A stretch of 64,000 bases of DNA, from IMG/VR virus record IMGVR_UViG_3300024346_000022, positions 32,748 to 96,747 of that record. One strand, written 5' to 3'. The position numbers and the translations under genes are program-made. Below the pieces are notes generated by a model. The model was not told the origin of the DNA and did no database searches. It worked only from the letters and a program-made list of their open reading frames with translations. Below, in pieces: positions 2,071 to 58,228 of the stretch; the first letter of the stretch is position 1, and the number at the start of each line of letters is the position of its first letter. Source of the stretch: a virus.

Positions 2071-3048
2071 ATGGTAAACGGATTTAACGTATCAGCAAGT
2101 TTATCGCCAAATGCGGAAAGAATTGCGGCGTCTGCTTCTGCAAAACTTTCCTCGTCTGTGGCACCTCTTAGATATCCACAGAAAAGTATTGGAAAAAATG
2201 ATGATTACCTAGAAATAGGTGTGATTGAGTATGTTGCCAATAAATTAACATTGGGGCAAGATAATCTTAAATTAAGATCTCAAACAGAAGCAATACAACA
2301 ATCTAATCAAAAAGCAAAACAAACAATACAACTACCAATACCATCAAATATTGGAGATACAAATCAAGTTGATTGGGGTAATGGAGATAGTTTAAATGCT
2401 CTTCAAGCTGCAGGAGTAACGAACATAGGAAATGTTCTTACAAGTAGTAATTTGGGAAAAGGTATTATTGATGCTTTTAAATCTATGGGAACAACCGCAA
2501 AGAATGTTGCAATCCAAGGTGGGGGACAAGATTTAGTTACGAGTTATTTTAGCGCAGAGTTAATAAACACATTAGGGGCAAACGTATCTCCAGAATCACT
2601 TATATCAAGAGCAACGGGTCAAGTTTTAAATCCAAATCTAGAATTACTTTTCAGTGGTGTCAATCTAAGGACTTTTCAATTTGATTTTGATTTTGCTCCA
2701 AGAGACGAAAAAGAATCTAATGTCGTTAAAGAAATTATAAGAGTCTTTAAGCAATCTATGGCACCTAGAACTGGCAGTAATACTGAAGGGGCTGGATTAT
2801 TCATTAAAGCGCCGAATGTTTTCCTCCTAAAATATAAGAGTGGAAGTCAGGAGCATCCTTATCTAAACAAATTTAAACCCTGTGCTTTGACAAGTATGGG
2901 TATGAATTATACGGGTTCTGGTTCATATGCGACTTATGCGGATAAAACTCCGGTTCATATGAAATTGTCTCTTAGTTTTACCGAACTCAATCCAATTTAT
3001 AATGAAGATTATAATAGTAGTGTTGGTCTTCAAGCAGTAGGTTACTGA
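2071..3048 (+). CDS. gp48: Baseplate tail-tube cap gp48
   Basis: NPNLELLFSGVNLRTFQFDFDFAPR...CALTSM...LSFTELNP; upstream of gp53. Confidence 0.85.
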   Translation: MVNGFNVSASLSPNAERIAASASAKLSSSVAPLRYPQKSIGKNDDYLEIGVIEYVANKLTLGQDNLKLRSQTEAIQQSNQKAKQTIQLPIPSNIGDTNQVDWGNGDSLNALQAAGVTNIGNVLTSSNLGKGIIDAFKSMGTTAKNVAIQGGGQDLVTSYFSAELINTLGANVSPESLISRATGQVLNPNLELLFSGVNLRTFQFDFDFAPRDEKESNVVKEIIRVFKQSMAPRTGSNTEGAGLFIKAPNVFLLKYKSGSQEHPYLNKFKPCALTSMGMNYTGSGSYATYADKTPVHMKLSLSFTELNPIYNEDYNSSVGLQAVGY

Positions 3049-3049
3049 T

Positions 3050-3697
3050 ATGTCTTATTTTAGAGAGCTTCCAGATTTAGAGTATCAATCACCTTTTGCC
3101 GATAGTAATTCCTCACAGAATTATGTAAGGGCAAAGAATTTATTTCGTCGTATAAAACTTCGTGATGACTTAAAAAATGTTTTTACTCTGTTTAATAAGT
3201 ATCAGATTCCAGAAGGAGCAAGACCCGATACTGTTGCCGAAGAAGTTTATGGAAAAGCAGATTATGACTGGGTTGTTTTATTGACCGCAGGTATTATAAA
3301 TGTCAGAGATGAATGGCCTCTTTCTAATAAAGACTTATACACATATGCGGAAGAAGTTTATGGAAATGACCTAAATGCCATACATCATTATGAAACCACA
3401 GAAGTCAAAGATTCTAATGGACGACTTATACTTCCATCTGGTAAGATTGTTGATTCTAACTTTACTATTCCAAAACCAAATGATTACTTGGCAACATTAA
3501 ATCCGGTTGTTGGGATTAGTAATTATGTATATCAAACTAGAAAAAATGAGGCAAATAGGACAATCTATCTTTTAAGAACGGATTATTTACAACAATATCT
3601 AAATGATATGAAAAAGATTATGTATTATGAAAAGTCTTCTCAATATATTAATAAAAAATTAATTCGCACCGAGAATACAAGAGTCACGATGCCATAA
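3050..3697 (+). CDS. gp53: Baseplate wedge subunit gp53
   Basis: MSYFRELP...RPDTVAEEVYG...WVVLL...HHYET LysM-like signature. Confidence 0.9.
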   Translation: MSYFRELPDLEYQSPFADSNSSQNYVRAKNLFRRIKLRDDLKNVFTLFNKYQIPEGARPDTVAEEVYGKADYDWVVLLTAGIINVRDEWPLSNKDLYTYAEEVYGNDLNAIHHYETTEVKDSNGRLILPSGKIVDSNFTIPKPNDYLATLNPVVGISNYVYQTRKNEANRTIYLLRTDYLQQYLNDMKKIMYYEKSSQYINKKLIRTENTRVTMP

Positions 3698-4682: not shown

Positions 4683-4711
4683 ATTATAGAAGATTTATAA
4701 AGGGATGTCAA
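4683..4711 (-). promoter_or_regulatory. Sigma70-type early promoter for gp32
   Basis: TTGACA-17 bp-TATAAT, overlapping the stop codon of the upstream endonuclease. Confidence 0.8.
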
Positions 4712-5358
4712 GCCCTCGTCCAACCTTTATGGTGATTTCTTTTACCACAAATTACATGATGCATAGCTGAATCGGTGAGATTATTTTGTTCGCAAAAATA
4801 TTTGAGATTATTTGCGGTATGTATTTTTCCTTCCGGATCTTTCATTACCCAAGTTTTATTATCTCTTGCTACTTTTCTTTCTCGTATTTGCTCCCTTTGC
4901 TCTTCTGTAAGTTTTTTGCCAAGCATTCCTTTTGGAGATATTCTTCCCATATGTGATTTACTCATTTTTCTTTTGGTTTCTTCAGATGCTTTTCTATTTT
5001 TAGCAGAATCTGATATTTTCTTTCTAACTTCTGGTCTTTTTGCTGGGTTATTTTCGCCAATCATATTTTCACTTGGAGTAATATAATAAAACTTTTTAGA
5101 AGTTTGCCTTGCTTTGTTGGCAAAATGAGGATTTTTATCTACTTCATAAAAGTCGTGAAGAACACATTCTGCCTCAAGTGCATCTTCTACGCTATCAAAA
5201 GTTTCTAAAATGATTTTTTGAGTTGGTTTAAAAGTTTTGTCTCTAAAACTTCCAAAATAATTTATATCTTCTTCTGGAAGACATTTACATTCTCTTTTTC
5301 CAATATATCCATTACCAAACTCTTCATAAGAGTAATAGACATAAAAATACTTTTTCAT
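4708..5358 (-). CDS. Free-standing GIY-YIG-like homing endonuclease with NUMOD3 repeats
   Basis: N-terminal YVYY...GYIGKR, YFGS, EALEAE-like motifs, and SEETKRKMSKSHMG NUMOD3; inserted upstream of gp32. Confidence 0.8.
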   Translation of the reverse strand: MKKYFYVYYSYEEFGNGYIGKRECKCLPEEDINYFGSFRDKTFKPTQKIILETFDSVEDALEAECVLHDFYEVDKNPHFANKARQTSKKFYYITPSENMIGENNPAKRPEVRKKISDSAKNRKASEETKRKMSKSHMGRISPKGMLGKKLTEEQREQIRERKVARDNKTWVMKDPEGKIHTANNLKYFCEQNNLTDSAMHHVICGKRNHHKGWTRA

Positions 5359-5390
5359 TCTTCTCTAATCGGGTGACATAAGTATTTATA

Positions 5391-5450
5391 CAAGAAAGGA
5401 GCACCGAAGCACTCCAATCTAACCTGAAAAGTGTCACCCGATCAGGCATT
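5391..5450 (-). ncRNA. Candidate small RNA (hairpin plus UUCG terminator) antisense to the leader of endonuclease 4708-5358
   Basis: AATAAATA (5453-5460), CCTGA/TCAGG stem, GGAGTGC-TTCG-GTGCTCC plus U-rich tract, then TATAAATA (5383-5390); same layout at 31505-31605. Confidence 0.55.
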
Positions 5451-5465
5451 TGTATTTATTACCAA

Positions 5466-18552: not shown

Positions 18553-21500
18553 TTGAAGTTACCATTCACAATACCAAGAACTTGATAATTTGCAGTAGTA
18601 CTAGCAGAACCTATTGTGTTAATGCCAGTAAAGTTAAAAATATCATAAGAAGTTGTAGAAGCAGTTGAGACAACAGAACCAGGATATCTTACAGTTCTTG
18701 CAGTACCATTTAAATTTACTGTGGTACATGCATATCCAATTGAAGTTTGAATTGCAACAACTGTAAATGTAAGAACACTGTTATCAAAAGTACTATCAGT
18801 TGGAATACCAGTTACATTCAGTGTGATTGGTCCTGTTGGATTTGTACAAATAGCAATATTACCACCACCAATATTATAAACCAAACTTACAGTATTTCCG
18901 CTTACACGTATTGATTTTTCTGCAAGAGATTGGATACGAGTATCAGTTGCAGTGAAAGAACCAGCAACGGATACTGTTGTTGTTGGATTTGTGGTTCCAA
19001 TACCAAGATTACCGGATGAAGGATTGAATACAAGTTTTGTAGAAGAAATATAAGAAGTTCTAGCAATTCCTGATGTGACAGAAAGAATTCCAACATACCA
19101 ATTTGAATTTGTTGTGGTGTTATCAAATACCGTAACCCCCCCATCACTTGTACCCTGTAGTCCTTGAGTACCCTGAAGTCCTTGAGTACCCTGAAGACCT
19201 TGAGTTCCTTGAACACCTTGATTACTTAGACCTTGAAGTCCTTGAGTACCCTGAAGTCCTTGAGTACCCTGAAGACCTTGAGTTCCTTGAACACCTTGAT
19301 TACTTAGACCTTGAAGTCCTTGAGTACCCTGAAGACCTTGAGTACCCTGAAGACCTTGAGTACCTTGAGTACCAGAACCTTGAAGTCCTTGAGTTCCCTG
19401 CAATCCTTGAGTACCTTGAAGTCCTTGAGTACCTTGAACACCTTGATTACTTAGACCTTGAAGTCCTTGAGTTCCCTGCAATCCTTGAGTACCTTGAAGT
19501 CCTTGAGTACCTTGAGTACCAGAACCCTGAAGTCCTTGAAGTCCTTGAACACCTTGAGTACCCTGAAGTCCTTGAGTACCTTGAACACCTTGATTACTTA
19601 GACCTTGAAGTCCTTGAGTTCCCTGCAATCCTTGAGTACCCTGAAGTCCTTGAGTACCTTGAGTACCAGAACCTTGAAGTCCCTGAAGTCCCTGCAATCC
19701 TTGAGTACCTTGAACACCTTGATTACTTAGACCTTGAAGTCCTTGAGTTCCCTGAAGACCTTGAGTTCCTTGTAGTCCTTGAAGTCCAGCAGCAAAAGGA
19801 GTAGTCCAAGAAACTCCAGCACCTGTTGATACTAAAACACTACCGGCAGCACCTACATTATTATTGATATCTCTCAAAGCACCATCAAGTTCTACCAATC
19901 CACCGAAAGTAGAAACACCGGTAATTCTTACATCTCCTTGAACGTGAAGTTTTGATGTTGGATTGGTTGTTCCCAATCCTATATTTCCACCATAAGGTCC
20001 AAGTTGTATCGTTCCATTCGCATCTACATCGATACTTGGAATACCAGAAACATCATTAACAGAGAAGATAGAACCACTGGTGAGATTATTTGTAATACTG
20101 AATAACTGACCAGCAGAACCTTCCCAAGATAAGGTGCCTGAGTTTAGAGTATCATAAGGAATTATATCAATTACTGTACCAATTCCAAGTGCTCCAGTAG
20201 AGGGATTGAATTGAAGTTTTGTTGAAGAAACCTGAGCAGTTTTGGCGATTCCTGATGTGACAGAAATAATTCCAACATACCAGTTTGAATTTGTTGTGGT
20301 GTCATCAAATACCACAAATCCACCATCACTTGCACCCTGAAGACCTTGAGTACCTTGATTTCCTGTACCCTGGAGTCCTTGAGTACCTTGAGTACCTTGA
20401 GTTCCTTGAGTACCCTGATTTCCTGTACCCTGGAGTCCTTGAGTTCCTTGAGTTCCCTGTAATCCTTGAGTTCCTTGATTTCCTGTACCCTGGAGTCCTT
20501 GTGTTCCTTGAGTACCTTGAGTACCCTGATTTCCTGTACCCTGGAGTCCTTGAGTACCTTGAACACCCTGAAGAGCGGCATTCTGTATCGTTGCCTTTCC
20601 TACAACATTTCCAGTTACATCATAAAGAGCAATAAAATCACTACTTTGAGGGTCTGTAACAGTAGGTAATCCATTAATATCAAGATTTGTAGCAGTTCCA
20701 TTAAATCTGGTTGCGGTAATTTGACTATCGGTAATATGAACTCCACCGACTGCCAAACGAACTCCATTAGGAACTTGAGTAGAACCAATACCAACACCAT
20801 AATTGAATAACCAGGCATCAGTAGTACCGGCACCTAAAGTACCACCCTTAATCCACATAATTTGTTTATATGTGGAAGGAATACTATCAATACCAACAAC
20901 ATTAATATCAATTAATGGAGTACCTTCAGTAGATGCAATTGAAATACCACCGTGATTTGCCGTGGTATCCGTAGAAACATCCTGACCAAAGGAATTTGTT
21001 GTAAATCCCAATACAATATCTTTATCTTTTACTTGTAATTCATTAACAACAAGAAATGCTGTAGTACCACCAACAGTTATGTTTCCCGTAACATTTAGAT
21101 TTGAATTAATATTTGTAGCACCATTAACTGTAAGACCCGTAAATGTGGGATTATTAGTTAGGGTGATTGTTGCACCTACTCCAGATGATGTTGCAGTTAG
21201 ATTTCCACTTACAAAGTTAATGGAATTAACATTACCTGGAGTTCCTACAACAGAACCTTCCTCACGAATTGTAATACCAGTAATTGCACCAGCAGAAGCA
21301 GCAGCAACCCAAGTAGGTGTAGCACCAACTCCATTTGATGCAAGAACATACCCAGGTGTACCATTTGCCAAAAATACAGTAGTATCAGATGCAGATTGAT
21401 AAGGTATATTACCAATAACACCACCTTTTAGATTTGTGGCAATACCGGCATTAGAAACATAGTCGGCAATTGTGATAGTAGAAGCAGTACCAGATGCTGT

Positions 21501-24281
21501 TGCAGTTACATTCTGCCCTACAAAGTTAATGGAATTAACATTATCCGCAGTTCCTACAACAGAACCTTCCTCACGAATTGTAATACCACTAATTGCACCA
21601 GCAGAAGCAGCAGCAACCCAATCTACTCCAGAACCAGTTGATGCAAGGACTTGTCCGGGTGCTCCAGATTCATTATCCTTATCAAAGAGAGAACCACGAA
21701 GTCTAATACCACCATTTACATCTAAGTTTGTTGTTGGATTTGTGGTTCCAATACCAACATAACCTTCTGGAGTTATTCTTAATCTCTCACTAATAACTGC
21801 ACCATCTAAAGTATAAAATCTCAAAGAACCTTGGTAATCAGTTCCCACATAATCGTCCCAACCTTCTATAAGAGCGACTGGTTGTGCAAGTTCTGATGCA
21901 TTTCCTCCAACTCTAAAATCAATTGCTCCTGCTTTTCTTCCGCCAGATACTTTAAATTGACTATTTGTAAGTCTTACTGTTGCAATACCAGTACCACCAG
22001 AAATTTCAAATGTTGCTGCAGGATTAGTAGCACCAATACCAAGATTACCAGAAACATAAGCACCACCAGTAACTTGAAGTCTTTGTGATGCGGTTCCTGT
22101 TGCTGATGTAGAGTTTATAACAATATTTCCAGAACTATCAACTCTCAATCTTTCTGCAGAAGCATTTACATCATAAACCCGAAGACCATCAAAACCAGCA
22201 GCAATTGAACCCGAACCAACTCTAAAGTTGTCTCCACCTGCTCCAGTTGCAGTAAAACCAATTTCCGCAATAGATGTTCCTTGAATATGAACACCATAGA
22301 TTGGATTATTGGTTCCAATACCAACATTACCACTTGCAGTAACAACAAAAGGAGTTTCATCAGGATTTGTAGAATCTTCAATTACAAGAGCATTACCAGT
22401 TCCAAGTTGAGTGATACGAACCATATCACTTGATGTAGTTCCAGAGAACAATCCAGCAATAGAAGTTGCTGTTGGAACTACATTTAAAGTTGCTCCTGGA
22501 TTTGTGGTTCCAATACCAACTCTTTGATTTGTTGCGTCATAAACAAAATTAGTTGCACCGGCAGATACATTATTATTGTTAAAAATAACTTGAGAGTTAG
22601 AACCTGCTATTGGTCCTACAAGACCTTGAGTACCCTGAAGACCTTGAGTTCCTTGAGTTCCTTGAGTACCCTGATTTCCTGTACCCTGAAGACCTTGAGT
22701 TCCTTGAGTTCCTTGGAGTCCTTGAGTACCTTGATTTCCTGTACCCTGGAGTCCTTGAGTTCCCTGTAATCCTTGAGTTCCTTGATTTCCTGTACCCTGA
22801 AGACCTTGTGTTCCTTGAGTTCCTTGAGTTCCTTGAGTTCCTTGAGTACCCTGATTTCCTGTACCCTGAAGACCTTGTGTTCCCTGAAGACCTTGAGTAC
22901 CCTGATTTCCTGTACCCTGAAGACCTTGAGTTCCTTGAGTTCCTTGGAGTCCTTGAGTACCCTGATTTCCTGTACCCTGAAGACCTTGAGTACCCTGAAG
23001 ACCTTGTGTACCTTGAGTACCCTGATTTCCTGTACCTTGGAGTCCTTGTGTTCCTTGGAGTCCTTGGAGTCCTTGAGTACCTTGATTTCCTGTACCTTGG
23101 AGTCCTTGTGTTCCTTGAGTTCCCTGAAGACCTTGAGTACCTTGATTTCCTGTGCCCTGAAGACCTTGTGTTCCTTGAGTTCCTTGGAGTCCTTGAGTAC
23201 CCTGATTTCCTGTACCCTGAAGACCTTGTGTTCCTTGAGTACCTTGTCTACCTTGAGTACCCTGATTTCCTGTACCCTGAAGACCTTGAGTTCCTTGAGT
23301 ACCTTGTCTACCTTGGAGTCCTTGAGTTCCCTGAAGACCTTGCAACGCAGCATTTTGAATTGTTGCCTTTCCTACAACTGTTCCACTTACATCATAAAGA
23401 GCAATAAAATCTCCACTCTGCGGATCGGCAATTAAAGGAAGACCATTAATATCAAGATTTGTAGCAGTTCCAATAAATCTGGTTGCGGTAATTTGACTAT
23501 CGGTAATATGAACTCCACCAACTGCCAAACGAACTCCATTTGGTACTTGAGTGGAACCAATACCAATTGCATAATTACTTAACCAAGCGTCAGTTCCAAG
23601 TCCAACAAAAGAACCTGCCTTAAACCACATAAACTTCTTATATGTGGCAGGTAATGTTTCAATACCAACAATATTGAGATTTACAAGAGGATTTCCTTCG
23701 GTGGAGGCAATCGCAATACCACCGTGATTTGCCGTATTATCTGTTGATATATCATTCCCATTTCCATCTGTACGAACTCCAAGAACAATATCAGCATCAG
23801 CAACTTTAAATGTTTCTGTGAATAAAGTAGCGGAAGTACCACCAATCGTAATGTTTCCATTTACATTTAAGTTACGATTAACCTGAAGGTCTCTGGAAAC
23901 TGTAACATCTTGTGGTGTTGTAAATTGATTTGGAATACTTAAGATTGGTGATGAACCTTCTCCGGTTCCGGTCGTAACCGTAATTTGATTTGCAGTTCCT
24001 GTGATGTTCTTAACATAATCACCAAAGGTATCAGTTCCAAGACCAACTGAATTTACAGTAACACTTGATGCTGTTGTTGCAGTTCCTGTTAAGTTTCCAA
24101 TAAATGTGGTTGCGGTTACAACACCAGTAAAGTTTCCATCACCAACTACGGTAAGTTTTGATGTTGCATTTGTGGTTCCGATTCCAACTTTGCCTACAGT
24201 TTGTATAACAGTTCTATCTTCACTATAAGAAGATAAACCTACTTTGAGTTCTCTTTGCCTGCCGCTGACGTACTTATCCAT
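18549..24281 (-). CDS. Long tail/whisker fibre with collagen-like Gly-X-Gln tracts (1910 aa)
   Basis: Three (GTQ/GLQ)n tracts, GNVGIGTTNP fibre repeats, internally duplicated modules. Confidence 0.85.
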   Translation of the reverse strand: MDKYVSGRQRELKVGLSSYSEDRTVIQTVGKVGIGTTNATSKLTVVGDGNFTGVVTATTFIGNLTGTATTASSVTVNSVGLGTDTFGDYVKNITGTANQITVTTGTGEGSSPILSIPNQFTTPQDVTVSRDLQVNRNLNVNGNITIGGTSATLFTETFKVADADIVLGVRTDGNGNDISTDNTANHGGIAIASTEGNPLVNLNIVGIETLPATYKKFMWFKAGSFVGLGTDAWLSNYAIGIGSTQVPNGVRLAVGGVHITDSQITATRFIGTATNLDINGLPLIADPQSGDFIALYDVSGTVVGKATIQNAALQGLQGTQGLQGRQGTQGTQGLQGTGNQGTQGRQGTQGTQGLQGTGNQGTQGLQGTQGTQGLQGTGNQGTQGLQGTQGTQGLQGTGNQGTQGLQGLQGTQGLQGTGNQGTQGTQGLQGTQGLQGTGNQGTQGLQGTQGTQGLQGTGNQGTQGLQGTQGLQGTGNQGTQGTQGTQGTQGTQGLQGTGNQGTQGLQGTQGLQGTGNQGTQGLQGTQGTQGLQGTGNQGTQGTQGTQGLQGTQGLVGPIAGSNSQVIFNNNNVSAGATNFVYDATNQRVGIGTTNPGATLNVVPTATSIAGLFSGTTSSDMVRITQLGTGNALVIEDSTNPDETPFVVTASGNVGIGTNNPIYGVHIQGTSIAEIGFTATGAGGDNFRVGSGSIAAGFDGLRVYDVNASAERLRVDSSGNIVINSTSATGTASQRLQVTGGAYVSGNLGIGATNPAATFEISGGTGIATVRLTNSQFKVSGGRKAGAIDFRVGGNASELAQPVALIEGWDDYVGTDYQGSLRFYTLDGAVISERLRITPEGYVGIGTTNPTTNLDVNGGIRLRGSLFDKDNESGAPGQVLASTGSGVDWVAAASAGAISGITIREEGSVVGTADNVNSINFVGQNVTATASGTASTITIADYVSNAGIATNLKGGVIGNIPYQSASDTTVFLANGTPGYVLASNGVGATPTWVAAASAGAITGITIREEGSVVGTPGNVNSINFVSGNLTATSSGVGATITLTNNPTFTGLTVNGATNINSNLNVTGNITVGGTTAFLVVNELQVKDKDIVLGFTTNSFGQDVSTDTTANHGGISIASTEGTPLIDINVVGIDSIPSTYKQIMWIKGGTLGAGTTDAWLFNYGVGIGSTQVPNGVRLAVGGVHITDSQITATRFNGTATNLDINGLPTVTDPQSSDFIALYDVTGNVVGKATIQNAALQGVQGTQGLQGTGNQGTQGTQGTQGLQGTGNQGTQGLQGTQGTQGLQGTGNQGTQGTQGTQGTQGLQGTGNQGTQGLQGASDGGFVVFDDTTTNSNWYVGIISVTSGIAKTAQVSSTKLQFNPSTGALGIGTVIDIIPYDTLNSGTLSWEGSAGQLFSITNNLTSGSIFSVNDVSGIPSIDVDANGTIQLGPYGGNIGLGTTNPTSKLHVQGDVRITGVSTFGGLVELDGALRDINNNVGAAGSVLVSTGAGVSWTTPFAAGLQGLQGTQGLQGTQGLQGLSNQGVQGTQGLQGLQGLQGSGTQGTQGLQGTQGLQGTQGLQGLSNQGVQGTQGLQGTQGVQGLQGLQGSGTQGTQGLQGTQGLQGTQGLQGLSNQGVQGTQGLQGTQGLQGTQGLQGSGTQGTQGLQGTQGLQGTQGLQGLSNQGVQGTQGLQGTQGLQGTQGLQGLSNQGVQGTQGLQGTQGLQGTQGLQGTSDGGVTVFDNTTTNSNWYVGILSVTSGIARTSYISSTKLVFNPSSGNLGIGTTNPTTTVSVAGSFTATDTRIQSLAEKSIRVSGNTVSLVYNIGGGNIAICTNPTGPITLNVTGIPTDSTFDNSVLTFTVVAIQTSIGYACTTVNLNGTARTVRYPGSVVSTASTTSYDIFNFTGINTIGSASTTANYQVLGIVNGNFK
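19145..19790 (-). repeat. Collagen-like tandem repeat tract C
   Basis: 9-bp period units such as CCTTGAGTA and CCTGAAGT encoding GTQ/GLQ, with GLSNQ and GSGTQ breaks. Confidence 0.9.
20330..20575 (-). repeat. Collagen-like tandem repeat tract B
   Basis: GTQ/GLQ triplets with GTGNQ breaks. Confidence 0.9.
22619..23345 (-). repeat. Collagen-like tandem repeat tract A
   Basis: GTQ/GLQ triplets with GTGNQ breaks; frequent 60-bp higher-order period. Confidence 0.9.
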
Positions 24282-30587: not shown

Positions 30588-30797
30588 TTAGTTCTTATAA
30601 AGGTCTTCTAATCTTTCTTTGGTGAGGTCAACATATAAAAGTTCATCACCTTCTTTTGGTGCCTCTGGGTGTTGAGGTTTTCTTGGAGTTCTCATTTCTT
30701 TATTGATGGATTGGATGTTTCCCCACATCATCGCAAAGGCACCTCCGGCGATGACTGCGAAGAATGTGAAGTAGATGAAGATTAGAAAGGGGTTCAT
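30588..30797 (-). CDS. DUF2973-like membrane protein
   Basis: TM helix, AFAMMWGNI, HPEAP..GDELLYVDL. Confidence 0.7.
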   Translation of the reverse strand: MNPFLIFIYFTFFAVIAGGAFAMMWGNIQSINKEMRTPRKPQHPEAPKEGDELLYVDLTKERLEDLYKN

Positions 30798-31504
30798 TTT
30801 CTTCCAATCCTCCAACCATCACCAGGGCATTCTAACACAAGTTTACAATTTCCGAGACCATCATTCCACCATTTTTTACCTTTCTTTGCTTCACTTAATT
30901 TTTTCCGGGTTTCTTCTGTTGGTTGTTTACCTTTATGTGCTTCACTCATTTTCTTTCTAGTTTCTTCTGAATATTTTCTTCCTATCATATATTGATTACC
31001 TTTTTGTGCCTCACCAACTTTTCTTTTAGTTTCGTCTGAAAGTTTTTTACCAACATTCCAAGTATTTCCAATCATTCTCTGTCTGATTTTATCTTTGTGT
31101 TCCTCCGATAGTTTTATTCCTTTTCTTTTTTCACTTATTTGTCGTTTTTGTTCTTCACTCATTTCTTTCCCATAGTTGGGATTTTTTTCACCGACTCTTA
31201 GTTCACTTAATTTTTTTCTTGTTTCTTCACTTACTAAAAGTCCAGAAACACCTTCACCACCATCGGTTCTGTTTCTTAGTATACCAGTTCTCAAATCTTT
31301 TCTACCAAATACGACGATCATATAGATTTCGTGTCTAAATGCTTCTGTTTCGGTTAAGTTCTTTTTAAGAAAGATTATTCTTGATTTATCTTTCGGTGGT
31401 CTTATATCACCTTTATTTTTATTAAATATTCTATTTCCTTTACCTTTACCAATATAGTAAGGGGTACTGTCTTCACGCAAATATGCGTAGGTATAGTAAT
31501 ACAT
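30794..31504 (-). CDS. Free-standing GIY-YIG-like homing endonuclease with NUMOD3 repeats, downstream of psbA
   Basis: YYTYAYLRED..PYYIGKG...LRNRTDGGEG; several SEETRKKxSE repeats. Confidence 0.85.
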   Translation of the reverse strand: MYYYTYAYLREDSTPYYIGKGKGNRIFNKNKGDIRPPKDKSRIIFLKKNLTETEAFRHEIYMIVVFGRKDLRTGILRNRTDGGEGVSGLLVSEETRKKLSELRVGEKNPNYGKEMSEEQKRQISEKRKGIKLSEEHKDKIRQRMIGNTWNVGKKLSDETKRKVGEAQKGNQYMIGRKYSEETRKKMSEAHKGKQPTEETRKKLSEAKKGKKWWNDGLGNCKLVLECPGDGWRIGRK

Positions 31505-31538
31505 TTCTACTCTGTTATGGTTCGCAATACTATTTATA

Positions 31539-31595
31539 CAAGAAAAGGTGCCGAAGCACCTCTTTCACCTGATAGATGCGAACCACACAGGTATT
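31539..31595 (-). ncRNA. Candidate small RNA (second copy of the module) antisense to the leader of endonuclease 30794-31504
   Basis: TATAAATA (31598-31605), ACCTG/CAGGT stem, GAGGTGC-TTCG-GCACCTT plus U-rich tract, TATAAATA (31531-31538). Confidence 0.55.
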
Positions 31596-31605
31596 AGTAT
31601 TTATA

Positions 31606-31633
31606 TAAAAAAAGGAACTCCGAAGAGTTCCCT
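31606..31633 (-). terminator. psbA intrinsic terminator
   Basis: GGGAACTC-TTCG-GAGTTCCT followed by a T-run. Confidence 0.8.
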
Positions 31634-31659
31634 TATTATACCATTATTTGGTTTTTATA

Positions 31660-33671
<2,012 letters not shown>

Positions 33672-33830
33672 TTGTTAAAAAGGGGGTAAGTATGAGTTCG
33701 GGGGACGAACTTGGTATAGTATACTCCACGATACCCTCCGTCGTGGATATGAGGGATGCTTTACTTCTCTTGATCCCGGTTTGAGAAGACACGGTTCTCA
33801 GAATTGTCACATTCCTTAACCCCGTGTATG
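33672..33830 (-). promoter_or_regulatory. Long structured psbA 5' leader (possibly a PhotoRC-type motif)
   Basis: About 160 nt with hairpins TCCACGA/TCGTGGA, AGTTCG/CGAACT and TTCTC/GAGAA. Confidence 0.5.
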
Positions 33831-57590: not shown

Positions 57591-58061
57591 TCAAGTCCAA
57601 AGATTATGATCATATTCCCAATGACAATTTGGGCACAAAGGCATTATATTTTGTTTTGAGTTTATTTCACTAATCAATATATCATCACTAAAGGAAGAAA
57701 TGGGTTTTATATGTGCAACTTCTATATGTTTATTATATCCACATTTAAGACACTCAGTAAATCCAAGTTTTTTAGCAATTGCTCTCGCTCTTGTTCTTAC
57801 CAAGGAGAATGCCGATGACTTGTGGTGATTTTCATATATCGCTTCTTTAAGAGTCATATCTTTTACTTCTTTATTCTTTATCCATATCAAATAGTGTTCC
57901 ATACAACGAGCACGATTTGCTGTTATTGGTTTTCCACAATCCAAACATTTATGTTCAGGTTTTCTTTTAGGAACCTTTTTATTGTTATAAGAAGCAGCAC
58001 AACTTCTACTGCAAAATTTGGGATTAGAAGTATGCTTTTCGCAAAATAAACATTTAATCAT
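57591..58061 (-). CDS. HNH homing endonuclease with Zn-finger N-terminus, within the tRNA cluster
   Basis: KFCSRSC, CLDCG, CLKCG...EVAHIKP...NIMPLCPNCHWEYD. Confidence 0.88.
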   Translation of the reverse strand: MIKCLFCEKHTSNPKFCSRSCAASYNNKKVPKRKPEHKCLDCGKPITANRARCMEHYLIWIKNKEVKDMTLKEAIYENHHKSSAFSLVRTRARAIAKKLGFTECLKCGYNKHIEVAHIKPISSFSDDILISEINSKQNIMPLCPNCHWEYDHNLWT

Positions 58062-58063
58062 AA

Positions 58064-58105
58064 TGGAACCTTTAGTTACTATTATTTATACGCTAAAAGG
58101 TTCCA
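58064..58105 (-). promoter_or_regulatory. Late promoter inside an RBS-sequestering hairpin
   Basis: TGGAACCTTT...TATAAATA...AAAGGTTCCA immediately before the ATG. Confidence 0.7.
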
Positions 58106-58109
58106 AAAA

Positions 58110-58228
58110 CGTCTCGTGCAAGATTCGAACTTGCGACCCACTGCTTATCACCTTATAAGGAATTGAACCTTATCATAACCACCCGGAAGGCGGAAGGCAG
58201 TTGTTCTAATCCGCTGAACTAACGAGAC
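58110..58228 (-). tRNA. tRNA-Arg(UCU) interrupted within the anticodon by a 45-nt insert (58148-58192)
   Basis: Removing the insert gives the GTCTCGT stem, ACTGC-CT TCT AA-GCAGT and GCAAG-TTCGAAT-CTTGC: a canonical cloverleaf. Confidence 0.85.

Follow-up and report, generated by a model that had tools for sequence, protein, structure and literature searches.

A portable RNA module ahead of free-standing homing endonuclease genes in freshwater T4-like cyanophages probably controls their translation

Introduction

Homing endonucleases must be expressed well enough to spread without harming their carrier, and the regulation of the free-standing members has been named an open area in the T4 literature (PMC2988022). 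The locus described here raises this question directly: what is the role of the compact array of late-type boxes, hairpins and complementary segments that precedes a homing endonuclease gene at positions 5356-5460 (minus strand) of the 64,000-nucleotide stretch of viral DNA that we analyzed (positions 32,748 to 96,747 of IMG/VR record IMGVR_UViG_3300024346_000022; hereafter the window)? An earlier note on this DNA had proposed that the array yields a separately terminated RNA, acting on the nuclease mRNA as an antisense antitoxin or bound by the nuclease as a guide or autoregulator, and had set it apart from the simple hairpins of T4. We conclude that the array is probably a portable unit of translational control that serves the free-standing homing endonuclease genes of freshwater T4-like cyanophages, and that the best-supported mechanism is a translational mask of the I-TevI/segB/mobE type.

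Results

The 96.7-kb IMG/VR record derives from a T4-like cyanophage, and the part covered by the window encodes gp59, gp32, a gp33-like protein, PhoH, a DUF1825 protein and psbA. The closest cultured phage is the freshwater Synechococcus phage S-SRM01 (∼79% identity across the copy-1 region). Homing endonuclease gene 1 (4708-5358, minus strand; 216 aa) encodes NUMOD3 and I-HmuI-like NUMOD domains with a GIY-YIG-like N-terminal motif and matches phrog_314, "homing endonuclease", in PHROG (E 2.6e-24). It is located between the DUF1825 gene and gene 32. In P-SSM2 the DUF1825 gene is followed directly by gp32 with no nuclease gene between them, so copy 1 and its gene constitute an insertion relative to P-SSM2. 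The corresponding site in T4, beside gene 32, is occupied by segG (PMC2988022). A predicted sigma-70-type promoter for gene 32 (4683-4711, minus strand; TTGACA, 17 nt, TATAAT; 12/12 consensus positions) falls within the last codons of nuclease gene 1, the same arrangement as in T4, where gene 32 promoters lie inside segG (PMC2988022); with this promoter embedded in nuclease gene 1, loss of the nuclease gene would be penalized.

Homing endonuclease gene 2 (30794-31504, minus strand; 236 aa; PHROG 314) encodes five NUMOD3 repeats behind a GIY-YIG-like N-terminus and is immediately downstream of psbA, as is F-CphI in S-PM2. A search of solved structures with a profile of the nuclease proteins returned no match, so the GIY-YIG assignment of both window proteins rests on the motif pattern, PHROG 314 and Pfam GIY-YIG matches in four relatives. 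The psbA gene itself contains four group I introns (31737-33037, minus strand; Rfam, 55.7-93.9 bits), and a PhotoRC-II element lies upstream of it (33711-33800, minus strand; Rfam). A third nuclease gene, of the HNH type (57591-58061, minus strand; 156 aa; HNH_2, E 2e-9), sits just downstream of a tRNA; the Rfam tRNA match beside it spans 119 nt (58110-58228, minus strand), which far exceeds the length of a tRNA and suggests an interrupted tRNA gene. Elsewhere in the window, dense direct repeats in a 9-nt register (spacings 9, 51 and 60) at 19080-19800, 20275-20595 and 22591-23000 lie inside large minus-strand genes and look like the short peptide repeats of virion fiber-type proteins.

The module opens with a late-type box ([A/C]TAAATA) and a small hairpin, continues with a G+C hairpin, its U tract and the sequence TATAAATA, and ends with a leader of 17-25 nt, complementary to the 5' strand and loop of the small hairpin, ahead of the nuclease ATG. 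In copy 1, all of it on the minus strand, the outer promoter-like box P1, AATAAATA, lies at 5453-5460, with its predicted start at the purine at 5447, six nt downstream. A five-nt spacer separates AATAAATA from the local hairpin H1 (5422-5447; GCCUGA/UCAGGU, a 6-bp stem with a 14-nt loop), whose 5' strand and loop form the anti-leader arm (5432-5445). Beyond a purine-rich spacer is an intrinsic-terminator-like element (5392-5415) composed of a G+C hairpin (5398-5415) and a U tract (UUUCUU, 5392-5397); a terminator scan picked it out independently, and it would form the 3' end of a predicted 56-nt RNA. The inner late promoter P2, TATAAATA, follows at 5383-5390. Its predicted mRNA start at 5377 reflects the promoter-to-start distance in T4, where late transcripts start 6 nt past the box (PMC1524935), and the nuclease mRNA leader (5359-5378; 19 nt from the predicted start) ends at the ATG at 5358. 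Positions 5445-5432 pair with 5378-5365 over 14 bp with one G-U. The purine-rich Shine-Dalgarno-like tract comes after the paired part of the leader and is only in part within the helix, a point against masking. Every element that the earlier note had listed for copy 1 was found on the minus strand, as was the pairing it described; its outer late-type promoter is present as a promoter-like box, but copy 1 carries A at -13 and hence does not have the consensus T4 late promoter.

Copy 2 (31605-31502, minus strand) is the recurrence that had been reported with a different loop and a matching leader. It has the layout of copy 1 and different arm sequences, which are again mutually complementary. 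Its outer box P1 is TATAAATA (31598-31605; predicted start 31592) and lies directly behind the psbA terminator (31611-31634). H1 (31567-31592) includes the anti-leader arm at 31577-31590, and it is followed by the terminator-like element recognized from sequence and fold (31540-31560; G+C hairpin 31547-31560, U tract 31540-31546), by P2, TATAAATA (31531-31538; predicted mRNA start 31525), and by the leader (31505-31526), of which 31512-31526 pairs with the arm through 11 bp and then 3 bp past a 1-nt bulge. The copy 2 outer box aligns with the TATAAATA promoter that precedes F-CphI in S-PM2. In that phage (L127, 1990-2063) a homologous psbA terminator is followed by TATAAATA and the F-CphI leader, and the region upstream of F-CphI yielded no hairpin, second promoter or arm-leader complementarity. 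A sigma-70-like promoter (11/12, with TG) overlaps the end of psbA in the window (31635-31663, minus strand); its predicted start falls inside the psbA terminator stem, and it might feed early RNA into cassette 2.

The module is not a chance arrangement, as judged from three observations. The window contains the junction word TTCTTGTATAAATA just twice, once in each module, versus 0.11 expected occurrences; a covariance model run over the whole 96.7-kb record matched only the two module sites (98.6 and 79.9 bits); and the helix pairing described below exceeds that of shuffled alignments. The Rfam comparison that had been proposed gave no match to the module, with no family reaching its gathering score and a best relaxed-threshold match of E 4.9. 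When the module was compared by blastn with 50,697 deposited phage records, S-SRM01 was the only match; it carries six cassettes. The covariance model detected no module in S-PM2 or P-SSM2 (best E in S-PM2, 0.38). At least 119 further distinct copies are present in uncultured phage contigs of IMG/VR, where two pattern scans returned at least 126 unique fragments with arm-leader pairing and at least 119 distinct full cassettes were aligned. Ten large contigs that were checked contained one exact copy apiece. A scan of metagenome contigs added about 51 look-alikes, the hairpin word used there being generic. The module is absent from the S-SRM01 genome paper (PMC8557907) and from the main text of a 2023 survey of structured RNAs in phages (PMC10690425), and it is not described in a 2025 review of phage small RNAs.

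Among the matches listed, the modules nearly always precede NUMOD3/GIY-YIG-like or HNH endonuclease genes, as the earlier note had anticipated for GIY-YIG/NUMOD3 genes: NUMOD3 was detected in 57 of the 108 complete downstream ORFs and Pfam GIY-YIG or HNH domains in a few, and the consensus N-terminus of these 108 ORFs is GIY-YIG-like. The upstream neighbors vary (the gene 32 stop codon, a tRNA 3' end, DUF1825, the psbA terminator), which indicates that the module travels with the nuclease gene. An unbiased sample was drawn through protein relatives of nuclease 2 rather than through the RNA and comprised 41 distinct upstream regions. An arm-leader module was found in 35 of these at ≤ -15 kcal/mol and in 34 at ≤ -17 kcal/mol, and P2 was TATAAATA in 28 of the 35 modules. 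Two orphan cassettes were also encountered (L109, about 3014-3150, plus strand; L117, about 2812-2950, minus strand) that keep an intact outer box, hairpin, terminator and TATAAATA but have a non-complementary leader and are followed by a different ORF. They could be remnants at sites from which the nuclease gene has been lost, or small-RNA genes retained for their own sake.

We assessed the pairing across the family. The long-range helix of arm with leader was 93% paired over the 119 distinct copies aligned among the matches listed, with both-sided changes at 11 of 12 pairs, so the covariation between loop and leader that had been predicted is present. None of 500 column shuffles reached the observed score, sliding the leader partner lowered the pairing to 41-56%, and RNAalifold picked the arm-leader helix unaided. 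Among the matches listed, H1 also covaries (86% paired, both-sided changes at 5 of 6 pairs), the G+C hairpin is 94% paired with compensatory changes, and the arm-leader pairs form about 21 specificity groups, with a mean duplex energy of -22.6 kcal/mol for cognate versus -11.2 kcal/mol for non-cognate partners. The fixed scaffold of the earlier note is therefore confined to the boxes ([A/C]TAAATA, the U tract and TATAAATA), as both stems vary by compensatory change. G-U exceeded A-C in all three helices among the matches listed (42:16, 69:16 and 95:9), which places the pairing in RNA of the nuclease-sense strand.

The computed folds differ among the transcripts that the module could give. For both copies, read-through RNA that reaches the start codon is predicted to form the long-range helix, which then encloses the G+C hairpin (-37.9 and -38.9 kcal/mol, z about -6). 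The predicted short RNA of 53-56 nt forms two hairpins in both copies (-22.7 and -20.1 kcal/mol, z about -3.5), with the antisense bases predicted to be unpaired in the loop, and the leader of a P2-started RNA is predicted to be unstructured (z about 0). The first paired leader base lies 3-5 nt past TATAAATA in 116 of 119 copies among the matches listed, and the complementarity ends at both predicted starts. Had the spacer behind the outer box also been complementary to the bases ahead of the AUG, read-through RNA from upstream would have been indicated; no excess pairing was found there (1.95 versus 1.92 pairs of 5). A search of the window for other targets of the arms gave none beyond chance, and the arms match their own leader.

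By sequence, both P1 and P2 are predicted gp55-type late promoters, with the box at -13 to -6 and a purine start. The outer box [A/C]TAAATA occupies a fixed distance in 125 of 126 copies among the matches listed. Within the same set the local hairpin begins with the purine at +1, six nt past the box; position -12 is never G or T, and position -13 is T in only about a fifth of the copies. The scarcity of T at -13 suggests that the outer box may be weak, and it is usually less consensus-like than P2. Both forms are established late promoters in other phages, namely NATAAATA in S-PM2 (PMC2984593) and CTAAATA in Aeh1 (PMC1524935). Within the window, 18 of 34 [A/C]TAAATA sites lie in the 60 nt ahead of an ORF start, versus 7 of 36 for the G/T variants. 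The G+C hairpin is followed directly by its U tract, as in an intrinsic terminator. About 26 of 29 unbiased copies have the U tract; the three copies that do not suggest that the G+C hairpin may serve in part as a structural clamp instead of a terminator.

How might these elements act together? Pairing of arm and leader very likely represses translation in cis. On this model the anti-leader segment (the 5' strand and loop of the small hairpin) would pair with the initial 12-17 nt of the nuclease mRNA, as far as the Shine-Dalgarno-like purines, and a presumably strong late promoter, TATAAATA, sits between the two complementary segments. RNA entering from upstream would contain both segments, fold into the long-range helix with its nested G+C hairpin and go untranslated; most such RNA would also end at the G+C hairpin and U tract. 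RNA initiated at the inner promoter would begin at the 3' segment and lack the anti-leader, leaving an open leader of 17-25 nt for late translation. The bracketed anti-leader hairpin is probably also made as a separate RNA of ∼55 nt, which could pair in trans with the late mRNA and damp the nuclease dose.

The cis part of this model follows a known design. For I-TevI, I-TevII, I-TevIII, segB and Aeh1 mobE, the mask closes early or read-through transcripts and leaves late ones open (PMC2988022), and the module likewise has a complementary upstream segment, a late promoter positioned between the arms and a downstream homing endonuclease of a T4-like phage. Two plainer relatives were identified. 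Six relatives of nuclease 2 (L207, L249, L252, L254, L261 and L267) carry a sister architecture ∼150 nt upstream of the match at 601, in which a conserved GGGCAGCAAC.../...GTTGCGTAAGTCCC stem holds the anti-leader in its loop; a late promoter comes directly after the stem, followed by a complementary leader that ends at the AUG. The arms covary, and there is neither an outer box nor a terminator in these six. In the window, the HNH gene is preceded by a 12-bp mask of the plain T4 type (58064-58105, minus strand; 5' arm 58093-58105, TATAAATA at 58083-58090 in the loop, 3' arm 58064-58075), whose 3' arm ends 2 nt before the ATG and which has no outer box, local hairpin or terminator, indicating that the same phage uses simple and elaborated designs. 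These cases indicate that the in-cis mode is used here, and together with the T4-family design they lead us to take cis masking with late-promoter bypass as the core mechanism. The earlier note had contrasted the module with T4 masks. It was right that the promoter-like box, local hairpin and terminator are extra, and a T4-type mask is not thereby excluded: the arms flank the inner promoter, just as they do in I-TevI, segB and Aeh1 mobE (PMC2988022), read-through RNA folds into the long-range helix, and there are relatives with no box or terminator besides the plain HNH mask. We found no basis for an antitoxin, because the target is a nuclease of 216-236 aa with DNA-binding repeats and not a type I toxin, and its toxicity is unsupported.

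The strongest competitor to a cis mask is a trans-acting repressor, an alternative we take seriously without favoring it, in which the main product would be a dedicated late small RNA (∼49-62 nt, from the outer box to the terminator) that works as a cognate antisense repressor in trans, with cis masking secondary. Its action would resemble that of P1/P7 c4 RNA on ant or of IS10 RNA-OUT on the 5' end of RNA-IN. The outer box, local hairpin and terminator are all conserved, though a cis mask needs none of them, and the local hairpin covaries even though its 3' strand is in competition with the mask. Together these elements define a transcription unit of 49-62 nt (median 55; predicted, among the matches listed): the conserved outer box has a late-promoter form (PMC1524935, PMC2984593), its purine +1 is the base of the covarying 5' hairpin, whose loop exposes the antisense bases, and the terminator-like hairpin comes next. 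The outer box and hairpin co-occur in 29 of 29 members of one architecture versus 0 of 6 of the other; because the two architectures are two lineages, this may reflect a single event, and the sister modules would work with neither box nor terminator. The calculated net pairing gain of small RNA with leader is -12.7 kcal/mol for cognate and -3.1 kcal/mol for non-cognate partners, which favors the cognate dimer. Against this, arms within a genome appear no more orthogonal than random pairs (mean non-cognate energy -9.9 kcal/mol for 28 pairs within genomes versus -11.2 kcal/mol between genomes), and an outer box less consensus-like than P2 is odd if a repressor must match its target. The position of copy 2 right behind the strong psbA terminator means that its arm can hardly derive from upstream RNA, but only 3 of 118 copies, copy 2 included, lie behind an upstream terminator among the matches listed. 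The metagenome scan with the generic hairpin word revealed no contig ending at the terminator.

Taken as additions to the cis mask, the extra conserved features favor a real small RNA without showing trans action. An RNA of ∼55 nt ending at the terminator is a reasonable prediction, and on balance we expect a discrete small RNA to accumulate; that it regulates in trans is a suggestion to which we give rather less credence. Tentatively, each cassette could encode a late small RNA cognate to its own nuclease gene, a "leash" that moves together with this gene and titrates the nuclease mRNA in trans. Orphan cassettes that have no matching leader (L109, L117) would fit such a role.

Other explanations fare considerably worse. 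Interference between tandem promoters, with polymerases from the outer box stalling or terminating on the U tract 1 nt from TATAAATA and occluding the inner promoter, draws on the rigid spacing by which the U tract adjoins P2 in nearly all copies among the matches listed; we regard it as improbable since it leaves both the covariation of the local hairpin and the arm-leader complementarity unexplained. Binding of a small RNA by the endonuclease, as a guide or autoregulatory ligand, is suggested by the physical linkage of RNA module and nuclease gene and by nothing else. This second proposal of the earlier note is very improbable: the same module precedes unrelated catalytic families (mostly NUMOD3/GIY-YIG-like, some HNH), its variable bases are complementary solely to their own leader and to no other site in the window, and GIY-YIG and HNH homing endonucleases recognize DNA through protein domains (PMC2988022). 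That the inverted repeat acts in DNA, as a cruciform or as a recombination or homing-site mimic, is hardly credible, for although the repeat flanks the inner promoter and I-TevI-type operators overlap late promoters in T4 (PMC2988022), the wobble in all three helices is strand-specific and the repeat sequence varies freely, unlike a protein operator.

Discussion

The preferred reading, a cis mask in an elaborated form, is best judged against known systems. Like the T-even masks (I-TevI, I-TevII, I-TevIII, segB; Aeh1 mobE; PMC2988022), the module has an upstream segment complementary to the site of ribosome binding on the nuclease mRNA, a gp55-type late promoter between the arms from which late transcripts would escape, and as its target a selfish nuclease of a T4-like phage. 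Unlike those masks, it separates the arms by about 60 nt, presents the 5' arm in a hairpin that is conserved in its own right, encloses an intrinsic-terminator-like hairpin between the two arms and has a second conserved late-type box ahead of the whole. The module is also portable, occurring at unrelated insertion sites and ahead of unrelated nuclease genes, and has about 21 arm specificities among the matches listed.

Antisense RNAs offer a second set of comparisons. The loop of IS10 RNA-OUT pairs with the extreme 5' end of RNA-IN, covering the start region, and RNA-OUT is transcribed from the opposite strand across its target. The module resembles IS10 as a mobile element that would limit its own nuclease-type enzyme by a stem-loop RNA, here predicted, but its complementarity is an inverted repeat on one strand. 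The c4 RNA of phages P1 and P7 is cut from the same precursor as its target. As with c4, the small structured RNA predicted here would be encoded immediately ahead of its target and on the target's own strand, its loop is complementary to the ribosome-binding region of the target, and specificity differs between relatives. In contrast to c4, which controls an antirepressor in a temperate phage, the module belongs to a lytic phage, targets a nuclease and has a predicted promoter box and terminator of its own. The c4 RNA is 77 nt long and acts in trans on the icd-ant mRNA (PMC12197685). The nearest case by location is CfrI of S-PM2, an antisense RNA of ∼225 nt between psbA and F-CphI (PMC2984593, PMC12197685). 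Here too an RNA is tied to a free-standing homing endonuclease of a cyanophage beside psbA, and nuclease 2 occupies the same position; CfrI, however, lies on the opposite strand, and the S-PM2 site has only the psbA terminator, TATAAATA and the leader. The masking principle is already known; the portable, two-promoter, terminator-containing and specificity-diversifying form is not.

If the leash model is true, no earlier description of small-RNA control of homing endonucleases would exist, and cross-talk or immunity between co-infecting phages of the same specificity would become possible. If the bracketed hairpin is released as an RNA, the modules would make up a new class of phage small RNAs with built-in, programmable targets, and the arrangement of promoter, antisense hairpin, terminator, promoter and target leader within ∼105 nt would be a compact design for synthetic control circuits. 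For a large group of freshwater cyanophages, the finding means that the control region of the nuclease is itself a mobile, modular unit, one that is common to unrelated nuclease families and insertion sites and whose RNA-RNA specificity evolves by compensatory change.
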